Positions 1,565 through 60,843 of a stretch of 64,000 nucleotides of DNA are shown one piece after another. Made by a program: the position numbers and the translations under genes. Under the pieces are notes generated by a model. It made no database searches, was not told the origin of the DNA, and saw nothing but the letters and a program-made list of their open reading frames with translations. Every line of letters begins with the position of its first letter. Within the stretch, counting starts at the first letter, position 1. Source of the stretch: a bacterium (GTDB taxonomy: Bacteria; Auribacterota; UBA3054; JAPLST01); the NCBI GenBank assembly GCA_026417575.1, contig JAOACZ010000128.1, positions 5,127 through 69,126 on the forward strand, read 5' to 3'.

Positions 1565-1656
<92 letters not shown>

Positions 1657-1706: not shown

Positions 1707-1782
<76 letters not shown>

Positions 1783-19974: not shown

Positions 19975-21810
19975 CTAGTCTGCTTTTGCTGGCTCCAAGC
20001 GTGCGGGGCTCAACTTGTAGAGGGGAACATGCGCTTTAGCAGTCTGCATGCTCTTTCGGCATACTGCGTGTCTCCGTTGGAACGTGCGCATGAGCAGAAG
20101 GCAAACGCCACAGAGGAGCACGTGACCCGGCTCGGGGATATCGCCCACAAACACAGCGCTCATCGGCCCCCAGTTGCCCAGAGCGTCTTGACCGCGCACA
20201 TATACCAGCGCCTCCGGTCCGCCCAACATCGTGCTGTCCACATAGCCCACGACAGGTTCATAGACTGAGTCAAATGCTCCATCGGCGGCACTCATGGGAA
20301 TTGGCACCACCTGGGGATGAGTGAATGGAAGCAAAGCGCACTCTGCAGCGGCGACGAGATTGCTTCCCGTGCCGCGCTCGTCAATCACGGCCGAAACAAC
20401 AACCATGTTGCTCGGCGTCGGGACGAGTTCGAGCGCCAGCGCATCAGGCCCGGCAACTAACATGTATGGCGCGCGGGCGATCTTCGCAGCATAGATGAGA
20501 GCGCCGCGATTGGTCGGCCACTGGTCAGCATCAATGGCACTGTATGCCGGCATGAACGAAGTGCCCACTTCGAAGGTAAAGGCTGGAATACCGAGCTCGC
20601 CGTAGGCCCAATCCGTGCTATCACCGCTGGTCGAGTAAAGCGACGTACTGCTTTGACCAGCGCGGTAGCGATTGTAGCGTGCGAACTTTAATCCGATGGC
20701 GCGGAGCTCATTTGCATTCGGCGCTGGCGCGGCTGTGTCGCCCCACGGCCACAGGACGTAACGGCCGTAACTATGCAGCGAGATCAATAACCCGGTGGTG
20801 TTACTCGGGGCAGGGTCAGTGAGCAAAGGACCGCGCTGATCGGGAATCAGATTAGTTACCAACGCTTGCAGGGCGGCCACTTCCGGCTCTGACGCAGGGG
20901 CTGTTCCGCAGTAGACAAGACTACACGGAGCGGTGCTAATGCCGACGGTGCCCCAATGAAATGAGTGGTTGCGATTAAGGTCAATCCCATACTGGGCCCA
21001 GTCATCGGGTGGCCATGCGCTACAGCGATCCTGATGGGCATTTTTACGCTGCATGAAGGGCGGGCCATTAAAAGGCGGCAGCGTGCCGAGCGAGACGAGC
21101 CAATGTGCTTCGGGATTAACTAGTGGCACAATCCATGTTTCTTGTTCGTTGACAAGCCACGTGGCGTCTGGATCGTGTCCGTAGCCTTCAAGGAGCCAGT
21201 GCGCGAAGCGGATGGCCAATTCGGGCGTGGTAATTTCACGGGCATGAATTGCGGCCATCAGGAAGAAAACGGGCTTGGGGCCCGGCGTGTTGGTGGCGGT
21301 GATGCACAGGGCAAGCAGGTCATGCAACTCTTGTGTTTGCCCGCCTGGCGTTACGGTGCCACCTACTGACTTACAGTAGGCGTCGCCGTAATCAACGAGC
21401 CGAGCTAGGTGAGGGTAGGCAGCTGTCAGCGCGTTCAGGTGAGCGACAATCTCCTGCGCGGTTTTGTAGGCACCGTAAAACTCCTGCGGTGCGAAGCCCG
21501 CCGGCCGGCGCATAAAACGCGCCTGCGGGTGGGTTAGCTCGGCACTGCGTTCAGCGTCAATGCTCACACGCCATCCTTCGGCTTCCAGTTGAGCCAGCGT
21601 GCGGGGAGAGGCCGTGACGAGGACGTATCCCTCCTCGCGATCATTGAATTCATGCACATCGTAGCGTGCCACCAGGTCCTGCAACGCCGCCTCGGTCGGA
21701 TAATAGACGCGCGCCACGTAGAGCGGGGGCAGCTGTACGAGTTCTTGCTGCGCTGCAGCGACGAAGACGTTCAGGAGTAGGGCATAACCGAGGGCAAGGG
21801 AACACCTCAT
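19975..21810 (-). CDS. Secreted M14 zinc carboxypeptidase with a PEP-CTERM-like C-terminal signal
   Basis: Signal peptide MRCSLALGYALLLNVFVAAA and M14 motifs HAREITT and DLNRNHSFHWG. The C-terminus reads IPEPGHVLLCGVCLLLMRTFQRRH followed by about 30 further residues. Confidence 0.7.
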   Translation of the reverse strand: MRCSLALGYALLLNVFVAAAQQELVQLPPLYVARVYYPTEAALQDLVARYDVHEFNDREEGYVLVTASPRTLAQLEAEGWRVSIDAERSAELTHPQARFMRRPAGFAPQEFYGAYKTAQEIVAHLNALTAAYPHLARLVDYGDAYCKSVGGTVTPGGQTQELHDLLALCITATNTPGPKPVFFLMAAIHAREITTPELAIRFAHWLLEGYGHDPDATWLVNEQETWIVPLVNPEAHWLVSLGTLPPFNGPPFMQRKNAHQDRCSAWPPDDWAQYGIDLNRNHSFHWGTVGISTAPCSLVYCGTAPASEPEVAALQALVTNLIPDQRGPLLTDPAPSNTTGLLISLHSYGRYVLWPWGDTAAPAPNANELRAIGLKFARYNRYRAGQSSTSLYSTSGDSTDWAYGELGIPAFTFEVGTSFMPAYSAIDADQWPTNRGALIYAAKIARAPYMLVAGPDALALELVPTPSNMVVVSAVIDERGTGSNLVAAAECALLPFTHPQVVPIPMSAADGAFDSVYEPVVGYVDSTMLGGPEALVYVRGQDALGNWGPMSAVFVGDIPEPGHVLLCGVCLLLMRTFQRRHAVCRKSMQTAKAHVPLYKLSPARLEPAKAD

Positions 21811-22000
21811 ACTCCTAGTATACCACTATTACGTGGTGAATTGTTAGCGCGAGAGCAGGGTGTACCGTGAGGCGTGGTTAGGCTGTGCGTGTGTGGAGGC
21901 GCTGAGCGCTAGGCTGGCGACACTGTTTGCAGCGGCGCGTGCGGAGGAGCCAAAAGCGCGTTTAGCCCTGGCGTAATGTTTCCGTCGAGCGGAAACGCGG

Positions 22001-22029
22001 TTGCACTTTTGAGAGACTTTGAGTATAAT
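22001..22029 (+). promoter_or_regulatory. Consensus sigma70 promoter for uvrD/pcrA
   Basis: TTGCAC (22001-22006), 17-nt spacer, TATAAT (22024-22029). The first ATG downstream is at 22057. Confidence 0.6.
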
Positions 22030-22056
22030 TTGCTAGTTGAAGATAGGTATACTGCA

Positions 22057-24282
22057 ATGAGCGCTAGGCATACCCGACAAGGAGGGAGCATCTCCGTGGG
22101 CGGCACGTCACGTGTTGTCGGGGTGGATTTTCGCGCGGCGCTGAATGAGGTGCAATATGAGGCAGTAACGCACGGGGAGACGCCGTTATTAGTTGTCGCC
22201 GGAGCGGGCAGTGGCAAGACGCGGATACTGACGTATCGTGCGGCTTACTTGGCGGCGCAAGGGGTGCCGCCGGAGCAGATCTTGGCCGTCACTTTTACGA
22301 ATAAGGCGGCGGATGAGATGGCACGGCGGGTACACCAGCTTGTGAATGCGCGTGTTCCTGTGTCAACGTTTCACTCGTTGTGCCTACGGATGTTGCGCGA
22401 GCAGAGTGCGCGGATTCCGTATAGGCCCAACTTCGTGGTGTACGATAAGAGTGACCAGCTTGCGCTGATCAAGGAATGCATGCGACGTGTGCATGTTTCG
22501 GAGAAACACGCCAAGCCGCGTGCGTTTGCGAATGCCATCAGTCGTGCGAAGGATCGTTTGCTTGATGCAGCCCAATTTGGCGCGACGGTAAAGAGCTATT
22601 TAGAGGAAGCGGTTGCGCTGGTGTACCGGGAGTATGAGCAGGCGTTGCAGCGGGCGAACGCGATGGATTTTGACGATTTGATCATGCAATGCGTGCGGTT
22701 GTTGGAGCGGGTACCGGAGGTAGCGCAGTATTATCAGCAACGTTACGCGCACGTACTTGTGGACGAATTTCAAGACACGAACTACGCGCAGTACGTGCTG
22801 ATGAAGATTCTTGTGGCACCGCATCGGCGAGTAAGTGCGGTGGGAGACCCGGACCAGTCTATTTACCGCTTTCGCGGGGCAGAGATCCGGAACATTCTTG
22901 ATTTCGAGCGTGACTTTCCCGAGGCGCGGGTGATCACGCTGGAACAGAATTACCGGAGCACGGCGACGATTCTTGCCGCGGCCAACCGGGTCATCGCGCA
23001 CAATGTGGAGCGCAAGGAAAAAAGACTGTGGACACAGAATCCGGCAGGTGTGCCGGTGCAAGTATACCGCGCAGCGGACGAACATGATGAGGCGCGCGAG
23101 GTGGCGGCGCGTATACAGGCATTGGAACGAAATGGTGCGATTCGTTCGCTGCGCGATGTGGTGGTGTTTTATCGTGTGCATGCGCTTTCGCGCGTGTTTG
23201 AGGAGGCGTTTCGGCACGCACGTTTGCCGTACGTGATTGTGGGGGATGTAAGCTTTTATCAGCGGCGCGAAATAAAGGACATTGTGGCCTATTTGCGCGT
23301 GCTGGTGAATCCTGCAGACGACGTAAATGTGCGGCGGGTGTTGAACGTGCCGCCACGGGGGATTGGGGAAGCGACGGAGGAGATGATTGCGGAATGTGCG
23401 CAAGCGCGAGGGTGCTGCTTTTACGCGATGTTGGAGCAACCGGAGCAGTTGCCGCGGATGACGCCGACGTTGCGGCGGCGGTTACAAGAATTCACGGGGA
23501 TGATCGCACGCCTGCGCGCGGCGCGCGGGGAGGCGTTGCCGACGGAGCTGATTCGGCGGGTGCTGGACGAGACGAACTACATCGCGCAGATGTGCGGCTC
23601 CGATGATGTGCAGGATGTGGCGCGGCGAGAGAATATTCAGGAATTTCTCTCTGCGGCTGCAGACTATGAGAATAGCTGTCCGGAAACGGTGGCATCGCTC
23701 GAGGGCTTTTTGCATTCGATTGCCCTCACGGCGGAAATTGACACCTGGAACGACAGCGCTGACGCGGTGACGTTGATGACGATTCACAATGCCAAGGGGC
23801 TAGAGTTTCCGGTTGTCTTCATGGCGGGGCTGGAAGAGGATTTATTTCCGCACTACAACTCGCTGGAAGATCCTACGGACATTGAGGAAGAGCGGCGGTT
23901 ATGTTACGTTGGCATGACACGTGCGCAGGAACGGCTGATTTTGACCACGGCGGCACATCGGACTATTTTTGGGCTGCGCAAGGTGCGTGAACCTTCGCGT
24001 TTTTTGAGGGAATTGCCGGCGGAGGACGTTGAAACGACGTACAGTACGCAGCATGAGTTGATCAGCGCGCCAGAACCGCGGGCGCGGGTGTCACGTGCCA
24101 CGCCTGGCACAAATGGCGAGTACACGGCGGGAATGCGTGTGATGCATCATGTGTTTGGTCCGGGGCGGATCGTGTCTGTATGCGGCTCGGGCGACGCGGC
24201 GCGCTTAACGATCGAGTTTGAGCGCCTGCCGACGCCGAAGGTGCTTGTGGCGCAGTACGCGAAATTGCGGGTGGTAAAATGA
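22057..24282 (+). CDS. uvrD: ATP-dependent DNA helicase UvrD/PcrA
   Basis: Motifs LLVVAGAGSGKTRIL, VLVDEFQDTN and QNYRST plus full C-terminal UvrD-like domains. Start set at the ATG at 22057 because the promoter lies inside the track's 5'-extended ORF. Confidence 0.8.
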   Translation: MSARHTRQGGSISVGGTSRVVGVDFRAALNEVQYEAVTHGETPLLVVAGAGSGKTRILTYRAAYLAAQGVPPEQILAVTFTNKAADEMARRVHQLVNARVPVSTFHSLCLRMLREQSARIPYRPNFVVYDKSDQLALIKECMRRVHVSEKHAKPRAFANAISRAKDRLLDAAQFGATVKSYLEEAVALVYREYEQALQRANAMDFDDLIMQCVRLLERVPEVAQYYQQRYAHVLVDEFQDTNYAQYVLMKILVAPHRRVSAVGDPDQSIYRFRGAEIRNILDFERDFPEARVITLEQNYRSTATILAAANRVIAHNVERKEKRLWTQNPAGVPVQVYRAADEHDEAREVAARIQALERNGAIRSLRDVVVFYRVHALSRVFEEAFRHARLPYVIVGDVSFYQRREIKDIVAYLRVLVNPADDVNVRRVLNVPPRGIGEATEEMIAECAQARGCCFYAMLEQPEQLPRMTPTLRRRLQEFTGMIARLRAARGEALPTELIRRVLDETNYIAQMCGSDDVQDVARRENIQEFLSAAADYENSCPETVASLEGFLHSIALTAEIDTWNDSADAVTLMTIHNAKGLEFPVVFMAGLEEDLFPHYNSLEDPTDIEEERRLCYVGMTRAQERLILTTAAHRTIFGLRKVREPSRFLRELPAEDVETTYSTQHELISAPEPRARVSRATPGTNGEYTAGMRVMHHVFGPGRIVSVCGSGDAARLTIEFERLPTPKVLVAQYAKLRVVK

Positions 24283-24317
24283 GGTTGGAGGGTGCGCGGG
24301 GACGCACCTAGGCTGCC

Positions 24318-25562
24318 ATGTGCATGCTATCCGCGAGCGATCATCGGGTGAGCATCCAACCGTGTGCGACGTATGAGCGCGGACAAGTATTGGCGGCGCT
24401 GCGGGCGTGCTTAGGGCCATGGGGCGGGATGGGGGCGTTTGTGCGGGCGGGACAGCGAGTGCTGGTAAAGCCGAATTTGCTCATGGGAATAACACCGGCG
24501 GCGGCAGCGACGACGCATCCGGCAGTGGTTGATGCGGTACTGACGCTCGTGCGCGAAGTGGGTGGCGAGCCGATGGTGGGCGATAGTCCTGGGATCGGCG
24601 TGTTGGAACAGGTGATTGGGCCGACAGGAGTACGGGAGGTGATAGAAGAGCACGGGGCGGAGGTAGCCGATTTTACGCGCGAACAGGTGTTTGTCTGCGA
24701 GGACAATCTGATTGGCAAGCGCATTGCGTTGGCACGAGCACTCGCCCAGGCTGATGTGTACATCACGGTACCGAAGCTGAAAACACACGTGCAGTTGGTC
24801 CTGACGTGTGCGATCAAGAACCAGTATGGATTGATTCCGGGTGCGCGCAAAGGTGAATATCACATGCGCTTGCGGGATCGTGACACGCTGGCGGAGCTAC
24901 TGATTGATATTAATCGGATCGCGAAGCCGGCGCTGGGCATTGTGGATGCGATCGAGGCAATGGAGGGGGATGGGCCGAGTGGGGGGACACCACGGCACGT
25001 GGGATTGCTGCTTGCCGGCGCGGACATGACGGCGCTGGACGTGGTGGCAAGTGAACTGATCGGGTTAGACCCGGCGCACGTACCGACGATTCAGGCGGCG
25101 CGGCGGCGCGGGTATGGGGCGACATCACGGGCAGTTATTCAGGTGATTGGGCCGTGCTTAGAGGAGGTGCGTCCGGCAAGTTTTCGCCATGTAGGGCATT
25201 TGAAGGATATCCAATCGATTGTACCGGTACCGAAGTTTCTGCTGGGGTGGATACGGCGGCATTGGGCGCCGCGGCCGCGGATTGTGGCAGAGGCATGCAT
25301 TCGATGTTTTGCGTGTCGGAATGGGTGCCCGGTGCGGCCGCCGGCGATTGATCCGGCGCGGCCGGTGCGGCAACAAGTGGACGACCGGACGTGTATTCGT
25401 TGTTATTGCTGTCATGAGTTTTGCCCGGCGCATGCGATCGTATTGAAGCGGACGTGGTTAGCGCGGGTGATTTCTTTTACGCGGGTATTGGATTGGGTGG
25501 CGCGGCATTTGGGGCGCGTCGTGCAGTTGGTGGTGCGCCTGCGAGGGCCGGCGCATGTCTAG
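24318..25562 (+). CDS. DUF362-domain protein with a C-terminal 2x[4Fe-4S] ferredoxin module
   Basis: VLVKPNLL (DUF362 hallmark) and two CxxCxxCxxxCP motifs (CIRCFACRNGCP; CIRCYCCHEFCP). Confidence 0.55.
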   Translation: MCMLSASDHRVSIQPCATYERGQVLAALRACLGPWGGMGAFVRAGQRVLVKPNLLMGITPAAAATTHPAVVDAVLTLVREVGGEPMVGDSPGIGVLEQVIGPTGVREVIEEHGAEVADFTREQVFVCEDNLIGKRIALARALAQADVYITVPKLKTHVQLVLTCAIKNQYGLIPGARKGEYHMRLRDRDTLAELLIDINRIAKPALGIVDAIEAMEGDGPSGGTPRHVGLLLAGADMTALDVVASELIGLDPAHVPTIQAARRRGYGATSRAVIQVIGPCLEEVRPASFRHVGHLKDIQSIVPVPKFLLGWIRRHWAPRPRIVAEACIRCFACRNGCPVRPPAIDPARPVRQQVDDRTCIRCYCCHEFCPAHAIVLKRTWLARVISFTRVLDWVARHLGRVVQLVVRLRGPAHV

Positions 25563-25613
25563 AGTCGGACGGGTCGGACGAGCTGGTCGGAGGAGTAAGG
25601 CGCACGTTGGGCT

Positions 25614-26618
25614 ATGAGGAGTGGGCGTGGCTGGGTGGTTGTGCGGTGTGGGGTGTACGTAGCTGTGGCGGGGTACGCGATGAGCTTGCTTGTGCGCATG
25701 CCTGGGGAGAGTTGGCGGCGGCCGCTTCCGCCGCTGACTGAGGTGCACGCTGCGCTGGCAGAAGCTCTGCATCGTGATGTGACTTATCTGGCTGGGGAAC
25801 TCGGGCCACGGCATGTGTGGCGACCGGAATATCTTGCAGCAGCACGTTCGTTTATCTCGGCGGCATTGAGCAACGCTGGGTTGATGGTGGCTCACTATGA
25901 CTATGTCGTGGTGTCAGTGACCTGCACGATTATTGAAGCCACGTTGCTTGGGCATAGGCGTCCAGAAGAGATCGTTGTAGTGGGGGCGCATTATGACACA
26001 ATCGAGGGAACACCTGGTGCGGATGATAATGCCTCAGGCGTAGCAGCATTGCTGGCGCTGGGTCGTTTGCTGGCATCACATCAGCCAGCGCGCACGATTC
26101 GGTTTGTGGCGTTTCCAAATGAAGAGCCGCCCTTTTTTCAAACCCGCGAGATGGGGAGCAGAGTGTACGCGGCACTGTGCCGGGGACGGGGCGACAGAAT
26201 ACAAGCCATGCTGGCACTTGAGATGCTGGGCTACTACAGCGAGAAGGAAGGTTCACAGGGATTTCCGCCGCTGTTGGGGCCATTCTTGCGTCCGTGGTAC
26301 CCATCGCGGGGAAATTTTGTCGGGTTTGTAAGCAATCTTCGCTCGCTGTGGCTGCTACGGCGCGTGGTGGGAACGTTTCGCCGTGCGGCAGAGATGCCTG
26401 CAGAAGGCGCGGTCTTACCAACGGTGCTAAGTGGCTTGTCCGACAACTGGTCGTTTTGGCAAGAAGGGTATCCCGCAGTGATGGTGACCGACACGGCTAT
26501 GTTTCGTAACCCTCACTATCACTTGGCGAGCGATCTTCCTGAGACGTTGGATTACGAACGTATGGCACGAGTGGTCGGCGGTTTAGAAGTGGTGGTCCGT
26601 GCGTTAGCCAACGAGTAG
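25614..26618 (+). CDS. M28-family aminopeptidase; start codon uncertain
   Basis: VVVGAHYDTIEGTPGADDNASGVAALLAL (Zn ligands) and FVAFPNEEPPFF. Confidence 0.6.
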   Translation: MRSGRGWVVVRCGVYVAVAGYAMSLLVRMPGESWRRPLPPLTEVHAALAEALHRDVTYLAGELGPRHVWRPEYLAAARSFISAALSNAGLMVAHYDYVVVSVTCTIIEATLLGHRRPEEIVVVGAHYDTIEGTPGADDNASGVAALLALGRLLASHQPARTIRFVAFPNEEPPFFQTREMGSRVYAALCRGRGDRIQAMLALEMLGYYSEKEGSQGFPPLLGPFLRPWYPSRGNFVGFVSNLRSLWLLRRVVGTFRRAAEMPAEGAVLPTVLSGLSDNWSFWQEGYPAVMVTDTAMFRNPHYHLASDLPETLDYERMARVVGGLEVVVRALANE

Positions 26619-26772
26619 GGTGGATGTGCCGCTATCGCATGGTGGGAGGGCGCGCGCAAACACTTGGGCGGGAGGGGACCGAACCGAGAAAATGTTATAC
26701 TAGGTGTGGGCGCAACATAAGCCCAAGGCACGCTCTTGTCCTACCGTTGTGTCACACACTCAAGGATCTGCC

Positions 26773-28779
26773 ATGAAAATGCAGCTTTTGCGGTGGTTGC
26801 GAGATGCTTCTCTCTGTGGCGTCGCGTTGGTCTTCTGCTTTATCCTCAACGATAATAGCCTTGCGGCGCCAGTGAGCACGCCGCAGGCGTATACAGCTGC
26901 GCTGAGCTTTGTGTGCCTGCGTTTTCCGGCACGGCCCGGGGCGGCGGTGCGCAGTATCACGGCACGAGGGCGTTCGGCCCTGGGGATTGCACGAGTGGGG
27001 CGCATGCGGGGTTCTGGGGGGCGCACGATCGCGTTTCTCGCGCAGTTGACACCGCGAGGTTTTGTCCTTTTGCGTGCGGATGACGAGCTCCCTCCGCTCA
27101 AGCTGTACAGCGACACGACGATGTTTGAGAATCTGCCTGGATGGGCGCGGAGGGTGGTGGCCGAGGAGTTAGAGGAGGAGCTCCTGGAACTTTTGCGACG
27201 ACGGACCGGGGGCGTGGTGCGGGTGCGCTCATTTACTGGCGCGTGGCAGGCGTTAGCTGGGAACGCGGGGGAGAACGGGGCTCATGGTACTGAGGAGTGG
27301 GTGGGGGCAGCGGCGGTGGGGCCGTTGTTATCGACGGCGTGGGATCAAGGTGACCCGTACAACCTGCACATGCCAACGGTAAGTGGGGCACCGAGTGGCT
27401 ATGGTGGTCGTGCGCCGGCGGGGTGCGGAGCGATCGCGTTAGCACAAATTTTGCGTTATCATACGAAACCCGCCCAGATTGCGAGTGACGAGACGTACAC
27501 AGACAATAATGGCTCGTGTCGCGGCACGCATTCGGCGAGCAAGGCTGGCCTGACACCGTATGATTGGGCGAATATGCCTGCAAGCGTGACATCGGGAAGT
27601 TCTGCGGTGCAGAAGAACGCGGTGGCGCAGCTGATTTGGCATTGTGCCGTTGCCCTGCATATGGACTTTGAAGCGAACGGGAGCGGGTCGTCGACCAGCG
27701 CGGCGGTGAGTGCCTTACGTACACTTTTTGGTTACACGTGCGACAACTACGTGACCCGTAGTGGGTTCAGTGATAGCGCATGGTTTGCCAAACTGAGCAA
27801 CGATATCAACGCGGCCAAACCGGTAGAGTATGTAATTACCTCGAGTGAGGGTGGTCACATGGTAGTGTGTGATGGGGTGACAGGGACGAGTCAGATTCAC
27901 CTCAATTTTGGGTGGGGAACGTTTTTGCCTGGCGCGACCGCGTGGTACGATTTGAACAGTATCGTCGCGGGCGGCTCGACGTGGACGACGCATGGTGCGA
28001 TTTTCAACATTACGCCGCCGACGAGCGGCACAGCGCCGACGGTTACGGCTTTTAGCATCAACAATGGGGCGGCATCTACGTCCACGCGTACGGTAAGCTT
28101 GAACAATACGTGTAGCGGATCGCCGACAGAGTATATGGCAAGTGAGAGCAGCAGTTTTTCTGGGGCGAGCTGGCTGCCGTACAGTCCAGCGCCCAGTTTC
28201 ACGCTGAGCAGCGGCAATGGGACGAAAACGGTGTACTTTAAGGTACGAAATTCATTTGGCACGTCGAGTGCGGCGGCGGACACGATTACGCTCAATGAGA
28301 GCAGCTATCCGCCTCTGGTGGTTTTGCGGATGCGGGAGAAGATCAATTGGGCCAAAGGGGGTGTGGGGTCGGGGGTGGTAAGCGTGGCGGTGCCGACAGC
28401 TTTGACGAGTTTGGCGTCCTTTCTCCCGTCGTACAGTGAGGTCATGCGCATTTCTGCGGATGGCACGCAGTGGTTGCTCTGCCCGAGCGGTGAGTTTATC
28501 AAGGCTGATAAAAACTACACCAAGTTAGTGTACTTTTCAAAGAGTGGCGCGTCGTTCCGTAAGACGGTAATGCGCCTCGCTGGGGGGTATTTGTTCATTA
28601 CGCGGACGCATGCGAATGCACTGAACCGCGAGTTTGGGTATCAGGTTACTTCAGCGGGGACGGCGGGGTGGCAACAAAAGACCGTGTATGTACGCGTGAA
28701 TTTCAGTGGTGTACAGGGGGAAGGTACGCACACGATTACGTATAAGACCGTAGACGGCCTGGTTACCACAATTAAGTGA
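26773..28779 (+). CDS. Secreted C10-family cysteine peptidase (streptopain/interpain-like) with additional C-terminal domains
   Basis: Start MKMQLLRWL (ATG 26773, AAGGA RBS, signal peptide). Catalytic Cys context GCGAIALAQILRYH matches streptopain GCVATATAQIMKYH. His context GGHMVVCDG matches GGHAFVIDG. Confidence 0.7.
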   Translation: MKMQLLRWLRDASLCGVALVFCFILNDNSLAAPVSTPQAYTAALSFVCLRFPARPGAAVRSITARGRSALGIARVGRMRGSGGRTIAFLAQLTPRGFVLLRADDELPPLKLYSDTTMFENLPGWARRVVAEELEEELLELLRRRTGGVVRVRSFTGAWQALAGNAGENGAHGTEEWVGAAAVGPLLSTAWDQGDPYNLHMPTVSGAPSGYGGRAPAGCGAIALAQILRYHTKPAQIASDETYTDNNGSCRGTHSASKAGLTPYDWANMPASVTSGSSAVQKNAVAQLIWHCAVALHMDFEANGSGSSTSAAVSALRTLFGYTCDNYVTRSGFSDSAWFAKLSNDINAAKPVEYVITSSEGGHMVVCDGVTGTSQIHLNFGWGTFLPGATAWYDLNSIVAGGSTWTTHGAIFNITPPTSGTAPTVTAFSINNGAASTSTRTVSLNNTCSGSPTEYMASESSSFSGASWLPYSPAPSFTLSSGNGTKTVYFKVRNSFGTSSAAADTITLNESSYPPLVVLRMREKINWAKGGVGSGVVSVAVPTALTSLASFLPSYSEVMRISADGTQWLLCPSGEFIKADKNYTKLVYFSKSGASFRKTVMRLAGGYLFITRTHANALNREFGYQVTSAGTAGWQQKTVYVRVNFSGVQGEGTHTITYKTVDGLVTTIK

Positions 28780-30157
28780 TCTCACTGCCACGCAGGGTGG
28801 TTGCGCGCCGCTGCAAGCAGAGCAGGAGCAGCGCGGCGAGCACCGTTGGCAGGAACCCCTCAGGGACCGTTTCATAGCAGCCCATATCGACATGCTGGCC
28901 TTGAATGCGAGGCTGGTGGTCTAAGTCCCAGGGGAGGGCGGCGGCGGTGTCATCGCCTGCTTCAAGGCAGGGCGAATGTGCCTGAAGATGAAAGTTACCG
29001 GCGAGGCTGTTGACGAAGAGGGGCGGATTAGTGATGTTGCCTAGGCCGGTGAGGGCGATTGGTGTGCAGGAGTAATGGGCTTTGAGACCGCTGGTATTTA
29101 CTTCGGGGGAGGAGTTTTCATAGACGATGCTGTTGGTCAGCCCGCCGCCACCGATCCCGCCAGGATTGCCGTGATTGCGGGCAATGGTACAGTTGACGAG
29201 GGAACAGGCGGAGGCGCCGCCGAAGCCTTGGGCGGCCTCGTTATAGGCGAGGAGGCAGTTGTACAGGCGGGCGGCCGCGGCGCCGCCGGCGAAGTTGCTG
29301 TTACTGCTGATATTAGCGATAAAGCGGCAACGCTGGTAGGTACCGCCGCTGGCGCCGCCATGACCAAGTAGGCTGACGTTGCTCGCGATGAGGGAATCGA
29401 AGGCGAACGTATTCAACGTGCCCGCGGCGGTGCTAGCGCGGTTCGCGGTGACGATGCAGTTACTTATGAAGCTGGCATCGGCGCCGCCCCCTGCCAGGGA
29501 TTCATTTTCGCTGATGAGGCAGTTTTGCGCGGTAACAGAGTAGCATCCGCCACCGCCACTGGCGGGGCTGTTTTGGCCGCGGGCGAAATTGCCGGTGAGG
29601 ATGCAGTCTGCGAGGTCACTGAAGGCCGCGCCGCCACCAAAACCGACTGAGCCGGTGTTGGCAGTATTTTTGATAATGCGGCAGTTGCGGACGGTGCCGT
29701 AGTAGACGCCTCCGCCGCGTGCGGCGCCGCGGTTGTGTGCAAGTACGCAGTGACGAATCAGCGGGTTGGTGCTGGCACATTCTATGCCCGCGCCGAACCC
29801 GCTGTAGAAGAAATTGCTGACCGTGAAGGCAACGAAGGTACCGTTGTTGCTGCCGAGGTACACGCCGCCGATATAGGTGAAGGGCCTGGGGGTGATGACC
29901 GTCCATGCAGCACCGAAAGCGCCGCTGACAGTGAGCTGGTTGGTAATAATGAGCCTGGCGGCAAGGCGATAGATGCCGCTGTAGACCAGGACGAGATCGT
30001 TTGGCATAGCGAGGTCTACCGCTGATTGAATGTTCGTGGCGGCGCCGGCCCAGCCATTCGTAAATGGTGGGATGTGGGCACCGTGTAAGGCGACGTAGCG
30101 AGTTGTTGCGGAGAGTGGCAGCACTGCGAGCAGGCAGAAGAAGACGTAGCGTTTCAT
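28772..30157 (-). CDS. Secreted right-handed parallel beta-helix (pectate-lyase-like) repeat protein with a PEP-CTERM-like tail
   Basis: Signal peptide MKRYVFFCLLAVLPLSA and many Gly/Asn-rich beta-helix rungs. The C-terminus reads VPEGFLPTVLAALLLLCLQRR plus 10 further aa. It overlaps the C10 gene convergently by 8 bp. Confidence 0.6.
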   Translation of the reverse strand: MKRYVFFCLLAVLPLSATTRYVALHGAHIPPFTNGWAGAATNIQSAVDLAMPNDLVLVYSGIYRLAARLIITNQLTVSGAFGAAWTVITPRPFTYIGGVYLGSNNGTFVAFTVSNFFYSGFGAGIECASTNPLIRHCVLAHNRGAARGGGVYYGTVRNCRIIKNTANTGSVGFGGGAAFSDLADCILTGNFARGQNSPASGGGGCYSVTAQNCLISENESLAGGGADASFISNCIVTANRASTAAGTLNTFAFDSLIASNVSLLGHGGASGGTYQRCRFIANISSNSNFAGGAAAARLYNCLLAYNEAAQGFGGASACSLVNCTIARNHGNPGGIGGGGLTNSIVYENSSPEVNTSGLKAHYSCTPIALTGLGNITNPPLFVNSLAGNFHLQAHSPCLEAGDDTAAALPWDLDHQPRIQGQHVDMGCYETVPEGFLPTVLAALLLLCLQRRATTLRGSEIT

Positions 30158-30433
30158 GAGCGCCCTCGATCTGAGGGAGAAGTAGACCGCGCTCTCGAAG
30201 CAGAGAGCGTGGAGAGATCACCTTGTTTATGAACAGGATAGCATGTTTCAGGCAGTGAGAACAACTATCGAGGCGCGTGTCTGCCTGTGGACTGAATTAC
30301 GAGAAGGGCCGAGCATGGCACCCGACAGGCTTCCCGCGGTAGGACGAGAACGCGCGCAGCACTGCGGTACTCAATTTTAAGGAGGCGCGTGACAGTGCGT
30401 GGAAGCTGAATATGGTATAATCACAGTCCATGC

Positions 30434-31714
30434 ATGAAGCTTAGGATGACGTACAACGGCACTGATATGAAGTGGCAAGAAGCCTTAGCCGCGTGGTTTA
30501 CGCAGCATACGGAAGAGGGTGTCGCTCTCTTACGTGACTTAGTGCGCCAGGACACGGTGAATCCGCCTGGCAACGAATACCGCGCCGCGGAAGTGGTGAC
30601 GGGGTATCTGCAGCGCTACGGGATTCCCTCCACGTGCTACGAAGGTGCTCCGGGGCGAACCAACGTGCTCGCGCGCATTGGAGATGGTGCTCCTGTGGTG
30701 TTCGTGCCGGCGCACACGGATGTCGTGCCAGTGGGTGACGGTTGGACACACGATCCGTTCGATCCTGTCGTACGTGATGGTTTTATCTACGGGCGCGGGG
30801 TAGCAGACGACAAGGGGCCGCTGACCTCGCTGCTGATGCTGGCGGCATTTTTGAAGCAGTACGAGGGGGCGTTTCGCGGTACGTTGCTTGCAGGGGCAGT
30901 AGCAGATGAGGAGTGCGGGTCGACTTATGGACTTGGGTACCTTCTGGAGCAGAAGTTAGTCTCGGCCGATTATGCCATTGTGCCTGATACGGGCGCTTCG
31001 ATATATCGCGTTTCATGTGGCGAGAAGGGGTTGTTGCACGTAGAAGTGACGTTCACCGGCGCGCAGGCGCACGGCTCGACGCCGGAACAGGGATGCAATG
31101 CCGCCTGGGCGGCGTGGGAGTTTCTGGCGGCGCTGCGGGCAGAGTTCGGCGACCAGATCGGGTACTGCCCTGCGAGTGCGCATGCGTGGTTCACTCCAAC
31201 CAGCATCAATCTTGCCCAGGTGCAAGGCGGGGAGGTGTACAACATTGTTCCTGGTCAGTGTCGCGTGCGCTTGGATATTCGCTATGTTCCGGGCGAAACG
31301 CAGGAGGCTTGGTTGGCACGCCTGCGTGGCTACGCCCAGCAGGTGCGCGACCGCCAGCAGTGCCGTGGGTTCGACGTGCGTGTGGCGGCGCACATGCCTC
31401 CTTATGTTGTCGAAGCTGACAGCCCGCTCATCACCGCAGTGGACAAAGCCGTGCGGGCTTTCACTGGGCGCCGGATTGAGTGCGTAGGGATGAGTGGTAC
31501 GACCGTATGCAAGCAACTTATCCAGCACGGGATTCCTGCAATCGGGTGGTCGCAGGACTCCCAGCACCAGGCGCACATGGCCAATGAACGACTGGCTTTG
31601 TCAGAGTTGCGTACATTTGGCGTCGTCCTTGGCTTAGCATTTCTCGCTCTGGGTAACAATCTCGAGGCCATTCGCGATGGCTGCACGTCCGAATATTCTG
31701 GTGATTCTCACTGA
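30434..31714 (+). CDS. M20-family peptidase (ArgE/DapE/acetylornithine-deacetylase-like); alternative ATGs at 30446 and 30467
   Basis: PAHTDVVPVGDGW, GRGVADDKG and DEECGS metal-binding motifs. Confidence 0.65.
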   Translation: MKLRMTYNGTDMKWQEALAAWFTQHTEEGVALLRDLVRQDTVNPPGNEYRAAEVVTGYLQRYGIPSTCYEGAPGRTNVLARIGDGAPVVFVPAHTDVVPVGDGWTHDPFDPVVRDGFIYGRGVADDKGPLTSLLMLAAFLKQYEGAFRGTLLAGAVADEECGSTYGLGYLLEQKLVSADYAIVPDTGASIYRVSCGEKGLLHVEVTFTGAQAHGSTPEQGCNAAWAAWEFLAALRAEFGDQIGYCPASAHAWFTPTSINLAQVQGGEVYNIVPGQCRVRLDIRYVPGETQEAWLARLRGYAQQVRDRQQCRGFDVRVAAHMPPYVVEADSPLITAVDKAVRAFTGRRIECVGMSGTTVCKQLIQHGIPAIGWSQDSQHQAHMANERLALSELRTFGVVLGLAFLALGNNLEAIRDGCTSEYSGDSH

Positions 31715-40524: not shown

Positions 40525-41751
40525 TTATTCCCTGGCGAAGGCAGCGACACGGGCGTCTGTGTCGTTCGTCAGGCGCGCGAGAAGAGCACGGGCTGCCTGA
40601 TTTGTTTCCATGCGCAGGCGGAATGCAAGGAAGCGCCGTGTATCTCTATCCTGCTCGCGCACAACTGGCGCGAGGAGGTGAGTGGTACGGGGAAGAGAAG
40701 CGAGGCAATCAATGGCTGCCGCGCGCGCCGTGAACGAGGTGCTGCGCAGAGAGGGCTGAACGTCGGCTAGTTTGGCCGAGAGTTGACCTGGTAAGCGCCA
40801 GAGGGTGAGGACGAGCATTGCTTCTGAGGAGATCGTGTTAATGGTAAACAGAATGGAAGAGGGTTGCTCCCAATTCCAACGGCAGGTATCGCGATCGCGG
40901 TTGCGGTTGGCGCGTAGGGCACGCCGCAACGTGGCGGCGCGCTGATCGGCGGACATTCGGAGGTTATAGACGGCGCGATACACAGGTTTATCCCAGAGGA
41001 ACGCGTAGGGATGCTGGCAGAGTAATTCAAGTGGTTGCAACGCCTGCGGCGCGCGAGAATGATCGAGGAGCACAGCGGCCGTGGTGAGGGCTTCCAGGGT
41101 CGTCCGCACGTCGAAGATCGTGTTGTTTCCAGCGGAGCGGTGTGGGAAGTCTAGGTCGGGAGCAGCTCCTGAGGGAGAAGGTGTGGCGCCCTGTAGATCT
41201 GGAAAAAGCTCTGGCCGAGCACGTACGGCAAACGCCCAAGCTGGTGTGAGGGGTTCGAGGCTACGCACATAGATAACGGGGGGAAGTGTGTGGAGTAAGC
41301 GCGTGATTTCTGCTGCGATCAACTCGTACACAGCAGGGTAGCGTGCGCGGTAGAGAGCCACGCAGGCAGCGGGCGTTAGGCGAAAGTGGTCGCGAATTAC
41401 GCTGTCAGCAGTAGGGTCATGAGTGCGCAGAGTAGCGAGCGCATGCAAGGCGTAGCCACGTGCAATATCAAGACTTTTTGGGTTGACCGTAGCGATTGTA
41501 CCAGCTTCGAACTCGTCACATCGTTGCAAGATGGCAGCGAGGGCGCGTACGCTGCGCTGATCGGGCAATTGAGCGAGGCGTATGGCATACTGCCGGAGTT
41601 CACTTGGAGAGAGAGCCAGGCGAGCGGCGTGCTCATACCGCTCGATTTCAGCCAGCTGGTCAGGGGAGAGAGCTGGCGCTGGGATGGCGCAGAGTACGGC
41701 GAGGAGTGCGCCAAGGAGTGATCGCCAGCGGGGGAATGGGCGGGAGGTCAT
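40525..41751 (-). CDS. Secreted alpha-helical repeat (HEAT/ARM-like) protein
   Basis: Start set at MTSRPFPRWRSLLGALLAVLCAIPAPALS (signal peptide), whose ATG forms an ATGA overlap with the upstream stop. Leu/Ala/Arg-rich helical repeats throughout. The track's 5' extension would overlap the upstream gene by 211 bp. Confidence 0.5.
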   Translation of the reverse strand: MTSRPFPRWRSLLGALLAVLCAIPAPALSPDQLAEIERYEHAARLALSPSELRQYAIRLAQLPDQRSVRALAAILQRCDEFEAGTIATVNPKSLDIARGYALHALATLRTHDPTADSVIRDHFRLTPAACVALYRARYPAVYELIAAEITRLLHTLPPVIYVRSLEPLTPAWAFAVRARPELFPDLQGATPSPSGAAPDLDFPHRSAGNNTIFDVRTTLEALTTAAVLLDHSRAPQALQPLELLCQHPYAFLWDKPVYRAVYNLRMSADQRAATLRRALRANRNRDRDTCRWNWEQPSSILFTINTISSEAMLVLTLWRLPGQLSAKLADVQPSLRSTSFTARAAAIDCLASLPRTTHLLAPVVREQDRDTRRFLAFRLRMETNQAARALLARLTNDTDARVAAFARE

Positions 41752-51621: not shown

Positions 51622-52137
51622 TTATTTGCATTCGCCGCACGGGGGTGGACAGGCTGGAGGACAGCTCGGCGGGCACGGCTTCTTCCAGGACTTTTTGCCC
51701 TTGCACGGGTAGGGGCAGGGGCGGCCCTTGGGTGCGAGCGGGATGCAGCCTTGCCGTGGATTTACGTACGTTTGCTTTGTGGGTGGGATCCAGCGCGCAT
51801 CCCACACAAAATCTGGCACGAGGTCATGGTAGTACAGGCCTTTGCCCGTCAGCCCGAACGTGACGACATCTGTTACGCCTGCGAGCTCACGCCAGGTTGT
51901 TAAAAAAGCACCTTTGATCGGCCCGCTGAGGAAGCCTACGATCGGGATGCGGGAGTTTTCATAAATCAGGCCACGCGGAATTTCGAGCCAGCCCGTCATG
52001 ATGTTCGCGAAACCGCGCGCCACCCCGTAAGCCGGGTTGATCGGTTTGGCGCCAGACGGCCTCGCCTGGTGCGACTTGCCAGCCATCAATGTCGTTGCTG
52101 CCATCAGAACGGCAAGTGCACATGCGAGTGCTTTCAT
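51622..52137 (-). CDS. Small secreted family protein (recalled as 'exosortase system-associated, TIGR04073-like') fused to a Cys/Pro-rich C-terminal tail
   Basis: Signal peptide MKALACALAVLMAATTLMA. Family core is GFANIMTGWLEIPRGLIYEN...GFLSGPIKG...GLTGKG...PDFVWDARW. The tail CPYPCKGKKSWKKPCPPSCPPACPPPCGECK has four Cx3C motifs and one CxxC. GAGGAG RBS. Confidence 0.6.
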   Translation of the reverse strand: MKALACALAVLMAATTLMAGKSHQARPSGAKPINPAYGVARGFANIMTGWLEIPRGLIYENSRIPIVGFLSGPIKGAFLTTWRELAGVTDVVTFGLTGKGLYYHDLVPDFVWDARWIPPTKQTYVNPRQGCIPLAPKGRPCPYPCKGKKSWKKPCPPSCPPACPPPCGECK

Positions 52138-58933: not shown

Positions 58934-59560
58934 TCAGTACGGTGTTTCCATATTTTCTTCGACGGCTTCTTCCTCCTCGAACTCGACTTGGAGGCTTTCT
59001 TCGCCTGGGGCGGGTGGCGCGTAGGGGGACCACTGTGCTGCGAACACAAATTCCGGAAAGAGGTCAGGTGAGAATGCACTTGGTCCGGTCATACCGAACA
59101 TCATGACATCCACAACTCCGAGGACGGCGCGGGAAGTCATGAAGAAGAGACCTTTTAGCAAGCCGCTTCCTATGCCAAGGACCGGAAAATTGACATTTTC
59201 AATAACCAGGTTGCGGGGCAATTCCAGCCAGCAGGTAGAAAGGTTTACGCATCCACGAAAGAAGGCCCAGGGAGGGTTGAGCTCGCGCGGGTAGGTGGGG
59301 CGGGGCGGGGGTGCGGGCGTTGGTACTGGCGTAGGAGTTGGCAACGCCGCAGCCTCTGTCGCAGGCTTGGCAGCCGCTGTTGGCGCTACTGGCGGAGGGC
59401 TCACAGGGGTGGGAGCGGAGGGGGGCGTTGCGAGCGTTGGTGCATTAGTTGCGATTGCATTAGCGCTCACATGTGCCACCGTGCTGATGTTTGTCGCGTG
59501 CGTAAGCCACGCACTGCCCAGGGCAATTGTTAGGCTCGCGATCAAGCGCTGTGTCTTCAT
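58934..59560 (-). CDS. Small secreted family protein, paralog A, with a Pro-rich N-terminal linker
   Basis: Signal peptide; core FFRGCVNLSTCWLELPRNLVIEN...GIGSGLLKG...FGMTGPS...PEFVFAAQW. AAGGAG RBS. Confidence 0.55.
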   Translation of the reverse strand: MKTQRLIASLTIALGSAWLTHATNISTVAHVSANAIATNAPTLATPPSAPTPVSPPPVAPTAAAKPATEAAALPTPTPVPTPAPPPRPTYPRELNPPWAFFRGCVNLSTCWLELPRNLVIENVNFPVLGIGSGLLKGLFFMTSRAVLGVVDVMMFGMTGPSAFSPDLFPEFVFAAQWSPYAPPAPGEESLQVEFEEEEAVEENMETPY

Positions 59561-59634
59561 CTGGAACTCCTTGTGACGTCTGGTGTGGCGAATAGCTCAT
59601 CTATGCAAGATGGGTAGACTCCTCCTCATGCAGC

Positions 59635-60042
59635 TTAGTAGAGCTCAGCTTTGTCCGAGAGCCAGGGGTCTTCCCACGGATAATCAGGCACGGCCGTAGC
59701 ATAGCCATAATGGCCCGTGTAACCAACGGAAAGCAGGTCCACCACGCCGAACAGCGTGCGCATCGCAGTCATAGTTGTGCCCATGAGAGGGCCGGTGAGC
59801 ACTGCCGAGAGAGGCCTTCGAGTGAATTCGTAACTTAAATTGCGGGGCAGCTCGAGCCAGCCCAACAGCACATTGGCTGCGCCGCGTTGCATCCCGAAAC
59901 GCATGGCCTCGCCTGTGGTGTCAAACTCGTATTCTGGCATGAGGGCGAAGGCAGCGTCGTCTCCCTCATTTTGGGCGCGCACGAGCGTGGGATTGGACAC
60001 TATGAGAAGAATCGTGACGAGTATTGCTGCAAAAGGTTTCAT
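59635..60042 (-). CDS. Small secreted family protein, paralog B
   Basis: Start MKPFAAILVTILLIV (signal peptide, GGAGAC RBS). Core GMQRGAANVLLGWLELPRNLSYEF...GPLMG...SVGYTGHYG...PDYPWEDPW. Confidence 0.55.
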   Translation of the reverse strand: MKPFAAILVTILLIVSNPTLVRAQNEGDDAAFALMPEYEFDTTGEAMRFGMQRGAANVLLGWLELPRNLSYEFTRRPLSAVLTGPLMGTTMTAMRTLFGVVDLLSVGYTGHYGYATAVPDYPWEDPWLSDKAELY

Positions 60043-60069
60043 GAAAGAACGTCTCCGTGACATAAGGGA

Positions 60070-60843
60070 TTACCGTGGGGGGCGGGGTGTGCCGCCGGGG
60101 AGTGTTGGGTCAGCCACGCTAGCTGCTGGTGGCGGAGGGGCAAGGGATGGAGCGCTGCGTACACGTGCATCTGTAGTGCCCACCGTGACGGGGGCTGTGC
60201 CCGGCTGAACAATTTTGCGTGGGGTAGCTGGGCCAACGGGTTCGTCGCTGGTGTGAAGTGTAGGCGGCTGGAGCGTTTCGTGATAGAACCAATCGCCTTG
60301 CCACACGAAGTCAGGGTAACCGCGCGCCAACCGTATGTCGCCGAAGTAACCCAGAGTCACTATGTCGGCCACACCCGCCGACATTCGGCTCATACCGCCG
60401 CCGAGGCCAGCTAGCCATGACGTGCCCAGTGCTTCATACCATGGGCGCTGGCTAGAGAATTCATACGTGAAGCCGCGCACAAGCTCGCCGGGCCAGAGGG
60501 TGAGGTTGGCAAACCCTCGCCAGAGACCGAAACCCATGACACGCCAGAGAGCAGTTGTGCGCATGGGAGGGGCGGTAAGTTCCTGGTAAGCGGATTCGCT
60601 GAGCAGATCGAGGTCCGGCACAGCCGCAGGTTGTGCGCCCGTAGGGCGAGCTTGCCCCAGCTCGGCGCGCGGAACCACAGGCGCGGCGAGCGGCAATCGC
60701 TCGGGAGCCGACGTTGGCGCACTCGCGCCAGCGCGCCCCACTACGCTTGTCGCCGGCTCCAATACCTGTGGTAACAGGACGTCGCCGTGTGCCAGCCATG
60801 CGGTGGCCACTACTGCTGCCCCAAGCCAACGGAGCGTCTTCAT
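60070..60843 (-). CDS. Small secreted family protein, paralog C
   Basis: Start MKTLRWLGAAVVATAWLAHG (signal peptide). Core GLWRGFANLTLWPGELVRGFTYEF...GLGGGMSR...LGYFGD...PDFVWQGDW. Confidence 0.5.
   Translation of the reverse strand: MKTLRWLGAAVVATAWLAHGDVLLPQVLEPATSVVGRAGASAPTSAPERLPLAAPVVPRAELGQARPTGAQPAAVPDLDLLSESAYQELTAPPMRTTALWRVMGFGLWRGFANLTLWPGELVRGFTYEFSSQRPWYEALGTSWLAGLGGGMSRMSAGVADIVTLGYFGDIRLARGYPDFVWQGDWFYHETLQPPTLHTSDEPVGPATPRKIVQPGTAPVTVGTTDARVRSAPSLAPPPPAASVADPTLPGGTPRPPR

Follow-up and report, generated by a model that had tools for sequence, protein, structure and literature searches.

Two minus-strand genes in the 64-kb stretch of contig JAOACZ010000128.1 analysed here (hereafter the window), one encoding an M14 zinc carboxypeptidase and the other a secreted beta-helix protein, raise the question of whether residues that follow a C-terminal sorting signal of the PEP-CTERM type belong to that signal. 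The first-pass annotation of this DNA had recognized in both C-termini the architecture of exosortase substrates (a PEP-like motif, a hydrophobic helix and a basic cluster), continued for 30 and 10 residues, respectively, and had proposed that the lineage might have its own variant of the signal. The analysis here presented agrees with the architecture and departs from the proposal: both proteins are probably surface or extracellular enzymes exported through Sec that carry a tripartite signal of the PEP-CTERM type, their extensions being incidental tails and not a modification of that signal. The finding looks like a largely ordinary one, with unconstrained, non-conserved cytoplasmic tails and no new kind of signal.

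The labels given to both proteins held. The M14 product matches Peptidase_M14 (PF00246) between amino acids (aa) 156 and 426 with 161 bits (E 6e-47, gathering threshold 21.6), and both open reading frames (ORFs) coincide at 100% identity with NCBI gene calls (611 aa for the M14 protein, P0001, and 461 aa for the beta-helix protein). No Pfam family was reached by the beta-helix protein in the Pfam scan, its assignment coming from a structure model with the fold of a right-handed parallel beta-helix (mean predicted local distance difference test, pLDDT, of 85.6 and predicted template modelling score, pTM, of 0.85), whose fold matches in the PDB are Pel9A, PL6 lyases, AlgE epimerases and Rhombotarget A, the latter a substrate of one tripartite-signal system. 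For the M14 protein, AlphaFold gave from 10 aligned sequences a poor model (pLDDT 55), of which only the tail helix was considered. As in carboxypeptidase T-like M14 peptidases, the M14 domain is accompanied by a conserved C-terminal beta-rich domain ending in GNWGPxSAxF, to which the clade of the window protein adds a PEP-type anchor, whereas Chloroflexota relatives end in PKD domains, in a short aromatic-LP-hydrophobic tail or in nothing. At the other end, both N-termini display, as judged from sequence, a basic n-region, a hydrophobic core and a c-region of small residues, and that of the M14 protein is a probable Sec signal peptide.

Translations and homologues agree on the arrangement of the C-termini. 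The M14 protein closes with GNWGPMSAVFVGD-IPEP-GHVLLCGVCLLLM-RTFQRRH and, from aa 582, with 30 further residues, its ORF ending in VGDIPEPGHVLLCGVCLLLMRTFQRRH followed by AVCRKSMQTAKAHVPLYKLSPARLEPAKAD and the stop codon. The beta-helix protein closes with GCYET-VPEG-FLPTVLAALLLLCLQ-RR and, from aa 452, with the 10 residues ATTLRGSEIT (the ORF ending in YETVPEGFLPTVLAALLLLCLQRR, these residues and the stop codon), one more arginine lying five residues past the RR pair; the hydrophobic stretch scored here for PEP-CTERM membership was FLPTVLAALLLLCL, of 14 aa. Both lengths are as first annotated, and their description as longer than canonical was also right, since the PEP-CTERM reference set (Haft et al. 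2006, PMC1569441) shows fewer than 10 extra residues in 87% of its proteins and a median of 3. Taking fewer than 10 extra residues as a position near the extreme C-terminus, the M14 tail with its 30 falls outside and the beta-helix tail with its 10 is borderline.

That tails of this type are not chance patterns is indicated by a detector based on a simple PEP/helix/basic pattern and applied to ORFs of at least 150 aa from the window and 84 loci (n = 2364), which returned 11 tails as opposed to 1 in a reversed-tail control. Two PEP-type tails were found within the window, and another type in the relative L001. When the ten top-scoring M14 relatives were aligned, selected by score and not by tail and showing 51-73% identity over the alignment, P559, E560, P561 and R575 (the first arginine past the helix) proved invariant in 10/10. 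More widely, 29 of the best 120 M14 homologues carry an [IVLT]PEP motif followed by a helix and basic residues, and many of these tails end canonically, with 0-6 residues past the cluster (for instance IPEPLLFINCYLTFIIYFFRKRIF and VPEPAGLLVLVLLLLRRK, each directly preceding the stop codon).

Regarding the beta-helix protein, a choice-of-anchor Q domain (NF041518) ends directly before its sorting tail. This domain is present in 10/10 of the homologues tested (8 above cutoff), where it is followed either by VPE[PSAG], a helix and basic residues, or by a different and very short tail; with such alternative tails among its homologues and no difference found from choice-of-anchor Q proteins, the window protein behaves as a member of them. 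V-P-E is kept in 4/4 members of the beta-helix clade, with a relaxed third position (PEP, PES, PEA or PEG), and the closest relative reads VPEP. A PKD-like protein of L001 shares this junction and ends canonically, running from GAFEYVPEP to LLHRRRR and its stop codon (full tail, GAFEYVPEPLTGHVCATAAIVTLLHRRRR).

When searched alone, the M14 tail matched the curated models of seven different PEP-CTERM protein families, weakly (E 0.006-0.3) and in all cases at the extreme C-terminal positions of the profile. LPXTG/sortase, GlyGly-CTERM, MYXO-CTERM and similar signals likewise combine a motif, a helix and basic residues at the C-terminal end or close to it, but the window motif is PE(P) instead of LPXTG, GG or a Cys-containing one, and the window tails were matched by none of the NCBIfam models of these signals, from which the single hit, to MYXO-CTERM, was negligible (E = 8) and concerned a homologue tail used as control. 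In common with PEP-CTERM/exosortase systems (EpsH, Xrt; TIGR02595, PF07589; PMC1569441), the proteins here described present a signal peptide, an [IV]PE[PG] motif, a helix of 13-15 residues and an Arg-rich cluster, as well as a diderm host, a region with more than a single protein of the kind and orthologues whose tails are canonical. From these sequence comparisons we conclude that both tails fill a sorting-signal slot and are of the PEP-CTERM type, the assignment being the more confident one for the M14 protein, given the PEG motif of the beta-helix protein and its basic cluster of only RR.

The extensions share none of this conservation. Among 12 tails of the lineage, from independent assemblies of 57-64% GC and three protein families (and not fully independent of one another), the lengths past the basic cluster are 30, 20, 15, 15, 2, 8 and 35 aa for M14 orthologues, 10, 1, 23 and 21 aa for beta-helix orthologues and 0 for the L001 PKD-like protein, canonical lengths thus being represented by the latter and by the beta-helix relative P0122 (RMRKVKE before the stop codon, 1 extra residue). 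Their sequences are unrelated, save among the most similar M14 pairs, and differences in both length and sequence are found even between orthologues that are 71-77% identical. Neither is there a common charge, with 6 K/R versus 2 D/E in the net basic M14 extension of the window and a net acidic one in the relative P0003. The GC content at third codon positions (GC3) is 0.57 in the M14 extension versus 0.65 in the gene body, a difference that is not significant at 30 codons.

A DNA alignment (A2) of four M14 3' ends reveals conservation through the PEP codons, only hydrophobicity kept along the helix, and sequences that are not alignable past the basic cluster. The M14 frame of the relatives L082, L083 and L001 overlaps the 3' end of a convergent downstream gene, by 66 nucleotides (nt) (L082:5110-5175), 84 nt (L083:10370-10453) and 86 nt (L001:11724-11809), respectively; this gene codes for a glutathione peroxidase in the first two and for a PfkB kinase in the third. 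No significant match to a remnant of the peroxidase or PfkB gene was found downstream of the M14 gene in the window. The downstream gene hence differs between relatives and neither version is present in the window, which indicates that the extension takes its sequence from any DNA lying downstream. That the window extension might be a rearrangement scar of the relatives' peroxidase or PfkB gene was also considered, and discarded upon the same lack of a significant match in the window. Terminator, promoter and Rfam scans of the 613-bp spacer 3' of the M14 stop codon gave no relevant match. As a separate observation, M14 and its convergent gene appear to over-run into each other in L082, L083 and L001, and in L082 and L083 the Leu-rich helix, with its CTG codons, reads in antisense as a Gln-rich (CAG) tail on the peroxidase.

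Lengths were then compared with a model in which the frame simply runs to the next stop. With the base composition of the window (58% GC), the stop probability is 0.034 per codon, which gives probabilities of 0.71 and 0.35 for extensions of at least 10 and at least 30 codons, respectively. The 12 lineage lengths do not differ from this geometric distribution (Kolmogorov-Smirnov p = 0.23), and in the 29 M14 PEP tails, whose sequences are not phylogenetically independent, extension length correlates with a proxy of GC content (Spearman 0.47, p = 0.011). The tendency of the lineage to long tails is attributed to relaxed constraint together with GC content.

These features can be accommodated in the established model for tripartite signals. 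After export of the M14 and beta-helix proteins through Sec, the basic cluster would be cytoplasmic, with the motif on the periplasmic face, an exosortase would cut at the motif to release or transfer the mature protein, and the helix and all residues C-terminal of it would be discarded. Being cytoplasmic and destined to be discarded, residues past the basic cluster would leave the position of the stop codon unconstrained, and the frame would run into any downstream sequence until the next chance stop in GC-rich DNA (about 58-64%), so that extensions of variable length and unrelated sequence are to be expected. Such selective invisibility past the basic cluster would explain at once the invariant motif, the helix that retains only hydrophobicity, the basic residues that are kept and the stop codon that drifts.

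Several observations weigh against this interpretation. Neither TIGR02595 nor PF07589/Pfam PEP-CTERM matched either protein at E<=10, as a whole or as an isolated tail, and both proteins miss the cutoffs of the curated models. The TIGR02595 scan, put forward as a check by the first-pass annotation, thus returned nothing for either protein, and its control indicates that it has little power, because canonical homologue tails fail as well: six canonical M14-homologue tails, such as VPEPAGLLVLVLLLLRRK, were missed, and the sole match was the beta-helix relative P0124, which reads VPEP, with 14.3 bits against a cutoff of 16. The PEG motif and the basic pair of the beta-helix protein depart from PEP-CTERM proteins too, as does the length of both window tails. 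No exosortase gene is found in the 64-kb window, where multi-pass membrane proteins are limited to a DsbD homologue and a PstA-like permease. Tails of at least 10 residues amount to 8/12 in the lineage versus 13% in the 2006 set (binomial 2.5e-5), the 12 tails not being fully independent and corresponding to an estimated about six independent extension events, and Haft et al. (PMC1569441) suggested that dramatically longer-tailed examples may be non-functional. In addition, GC content alone may not fully explain the long tails, given that GC-rich genomes were part of the 2006 set too, and no lineage tail exceeds 35 aa as opposed to ~29% predicted by the geometric model (P = 0.017), so mild selection against very long tails may exist.

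The lack of an exosortase gene in the window, the atypical lengths together with the remark in the 2006 study, the relaxed third motif position in the beta-helix clade and the curated models that were not reached would all suit tails that never were, or no longer are, exosortase substrates, and that either simply anchor the C-terminus in the membrane, leaving a short cytoplasmic stretch, or are decaying relics of a signal. This is nonetheless unlikely, considering that PEP is invariant in M14 orthologues down to ~50% identity beside a helix whose sequence varies freely, which argues for selection on the motif itself, needless for a plain anchor. The retention of V-P-E in all four members of the beta-helix clade points in the same direction, as do the four paralogues of the TIGR04073 "exosortase system-associated" family in the window, one of them at the curated cutoff, which uphold the family expansion described in the first annotation. 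A long post-basic tail is by itself no mark of a dead PEP-CTERM signal, because the motif remains invariant while the tail drifts. With long tails being the rule in the lineage and VPE-x in the beta-helix clade, a distinct exosortase subtype with other rules of tolerance or recognition, or a signal repurposed as a stable membrane anchor, can also be envisaged, although either appears quite improbable.

A functional lineage-specific variant, in which the sorting machinery would recognize the extended cytoplasmic tail, could draw on the excess of long tails over the 2006 set, on the deep-branching and uncharacterised nature of the lineage and on the net basic charge of the window M14 extension. 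It is, however, very unlikely, considering that (i) the extensions have no sequence in common and span 0-35 aa, (ii) canonical tails coexist in the same lineage, (iii) DNA homology ends at the basic cluster, (iv) the relatives' extension is the antisense of the 3' end of another gene, which changes from relative to relative, (v) the lengths are compatible with the neutral model, and (vi) the charge is inconsistent, as the acidic extension of P0003 illustrates; this part of the first-pass annotation is accordingly not retained. That the extensions are artefacts of a sequencing or assembly indel, or of a missed stop near the 3' ends, might be suspected from the source being a metagenome-assembled genome (MAG) and from the alternative frames of M14, in which a stop follows the basic cluster after 18 codons (frame +1) or 9 codons (frame +2), so that a frameshift near the cluster would shorten the protein relative to the 30-codon reading. 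Extensions are also present, however, in six independently assembled M14 and two beta-helix orthologues from different samples, and the NCBI gene calls match both ORFs, making this origin extremely improbable.

Taking both proteins as carriers of a PEP-CTERM-type signal with incidental tails, they likely act as enzymes on the cell surface or outside the cell, in a bacterial lineage that is uncharacterised. Consequences are modest, and understanding of the sorting system is unchanged by these results. Regarding annotation, curated PEP-CTERM models miss these proteins as well as canonical tails of their relatives, and exosortase substrates can therefore be expected to go under-called in uncultured GC-rich lineages.

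Table 1. Positions in the window of the two tailed genes, their C-terminal elements and other features.
Feature	Position	Strand	Size, evidence or remarks
M14 zinc carboxypeptidase gene	19975..21810	minus	611 aa; translation
Candidate Sec signal peptide of M14, aa 1-20, MRCSLALGYALLLNVFVAAA followed by QQ	21751..21810	minus	read from sequence; hydrophobic segment at position 1
Signature motif I-P-E-P of M14, aa 558-561	20128..20139	minus	P559/E560/P561 invariant in ten top-scoring homologues; codons kept in DNA alignment A2
Hydrophobic transmembrane segment of M14, GHVLLCGVCLLLM, aa 562-574	20089..20127	minus	13 aa; helix predicted from aa 561, low confidence
Basic cluster RTFQRRH of M14, aa 575-581	20068..20088	minus	R575 invariant in alignment A1
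Post-basic extension of M14, AVCRKSMQTAKAHVPLYKLSPARLEPAKAD, aa 582-611	19978..20067	minus	30 aa; without homology to relatives' extensions (protein, DNA); pLDDT <50
M14 stop codon	19975..19977	minus	
Secreted right-handed parallel beta-helix protein gene	28772..30157	minus	461 aa; translation, structure model
Choice-of-anchor Q domain of beta-helix protein, aa 388-430	28868..28996	minus	NF041518, 31.2 bits vs cutoff 25
Signature motif V-P-E-G (relaxed PEP) of beta-helix protein, aa 431-434	28856..28867	minus	VPEP, VPES, VPEA at same position in relatives
Hydrophobic segment of beta-helix protein, FLPTVLAALLLLCLQ, aa 435-449	28811..28855	minus	helix predicted aa 435-460, low confidence
Basic pair RR of beta-helix protein, aa 450-451	28805..28810	minus	translation
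Extension ATTLRGSEIT of beta-helix protein, aa 452-461	28775..28804	minus	10 aa; not homologous to P0123/P0124 extensions; absent in P0122
Beta-helix stop codon	28772..28774	minus	
TIGR04073 "exosortase system-associated" paralogue	51622..52137	minus	50.0 bits, exactly at cutoff 50
Three tandem TIGR04073-like paralogues (58934..59560, 59635..60063, 60070..60909)	58934..60909	minus	37.5, 47.2 and 19.7 bits; below cutoff 50
AsmA-family / DUF748 protein	46133..49192		
M28 peptidase	25614..26618		predicted
C10 cysteine peptidase	26704..28779		158 bits
M20 ArgE/DapE-type deacylase	30434..31714		predicted
Secreted protein with two DUF3857 domains and transglutaminase-like cores	41748..45539	minus	1263 aa; without sorting tail
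Two adjacent tRNA genes	1568..1656, 1710..1782	minus	Rfam RF00005, 64 and 71 bits

Regarding the surroundings of both genes, they lie within a cluster of predicted peptidases (19975..31714), and the gene order PcrA-DUF362-M28 is conserved in the relative L086. The four TIGR04073-family paralogues are small secreted proteins and lend indirect support to an exosortase system in this genome, and the AsmA-family protein indicates, as far as its family assignment goes, an outer membrane in the host. When the M14 alignment was compared with GTDB representative genomes, the best match was at 52% identity, in Chloroflexota, whereas PcrA relatives at 52-85% identity are all metagenome proteins, with named taxa at 47% or less and of mixed phyla. 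The confinement of close relatives of PcrA and M14 to metagenome assemblies suggests a poorly sampled deep lineage.

Two further types of C-terminal tail were observed among homologues. A transmembrane helix is lacking in as many as 52 of the best 120 M14 homologues (P0011-P0120; loci L002-L081), the majority from Chloroflexota MAGs; these end in a very short conserved aromatic-[LFVI]-P-hydrophobic tail (YLPLIRAD, FLPAVTRP, YLPIAIRD or FVPLVVRD, each up to the stop codon), which occupies the PEP-CTERM position of the window clade. It found no match among the models run, and may be a distinct C-terminal signal. Distant choice-of-anchor Q beta-helix homologues (P0131, P0133, P0135, P0136, P0140, P0141, P0145 and P0154) end, for their part, 8-10 residues past the domain in a sequence of the form G-[TL]-hydrophobic(4-5)-R and the stop codon (SGTIFIFR, GTVILVR, ATMLLIR or GLLLMVR), another short recurrent type of C-terminal tail.

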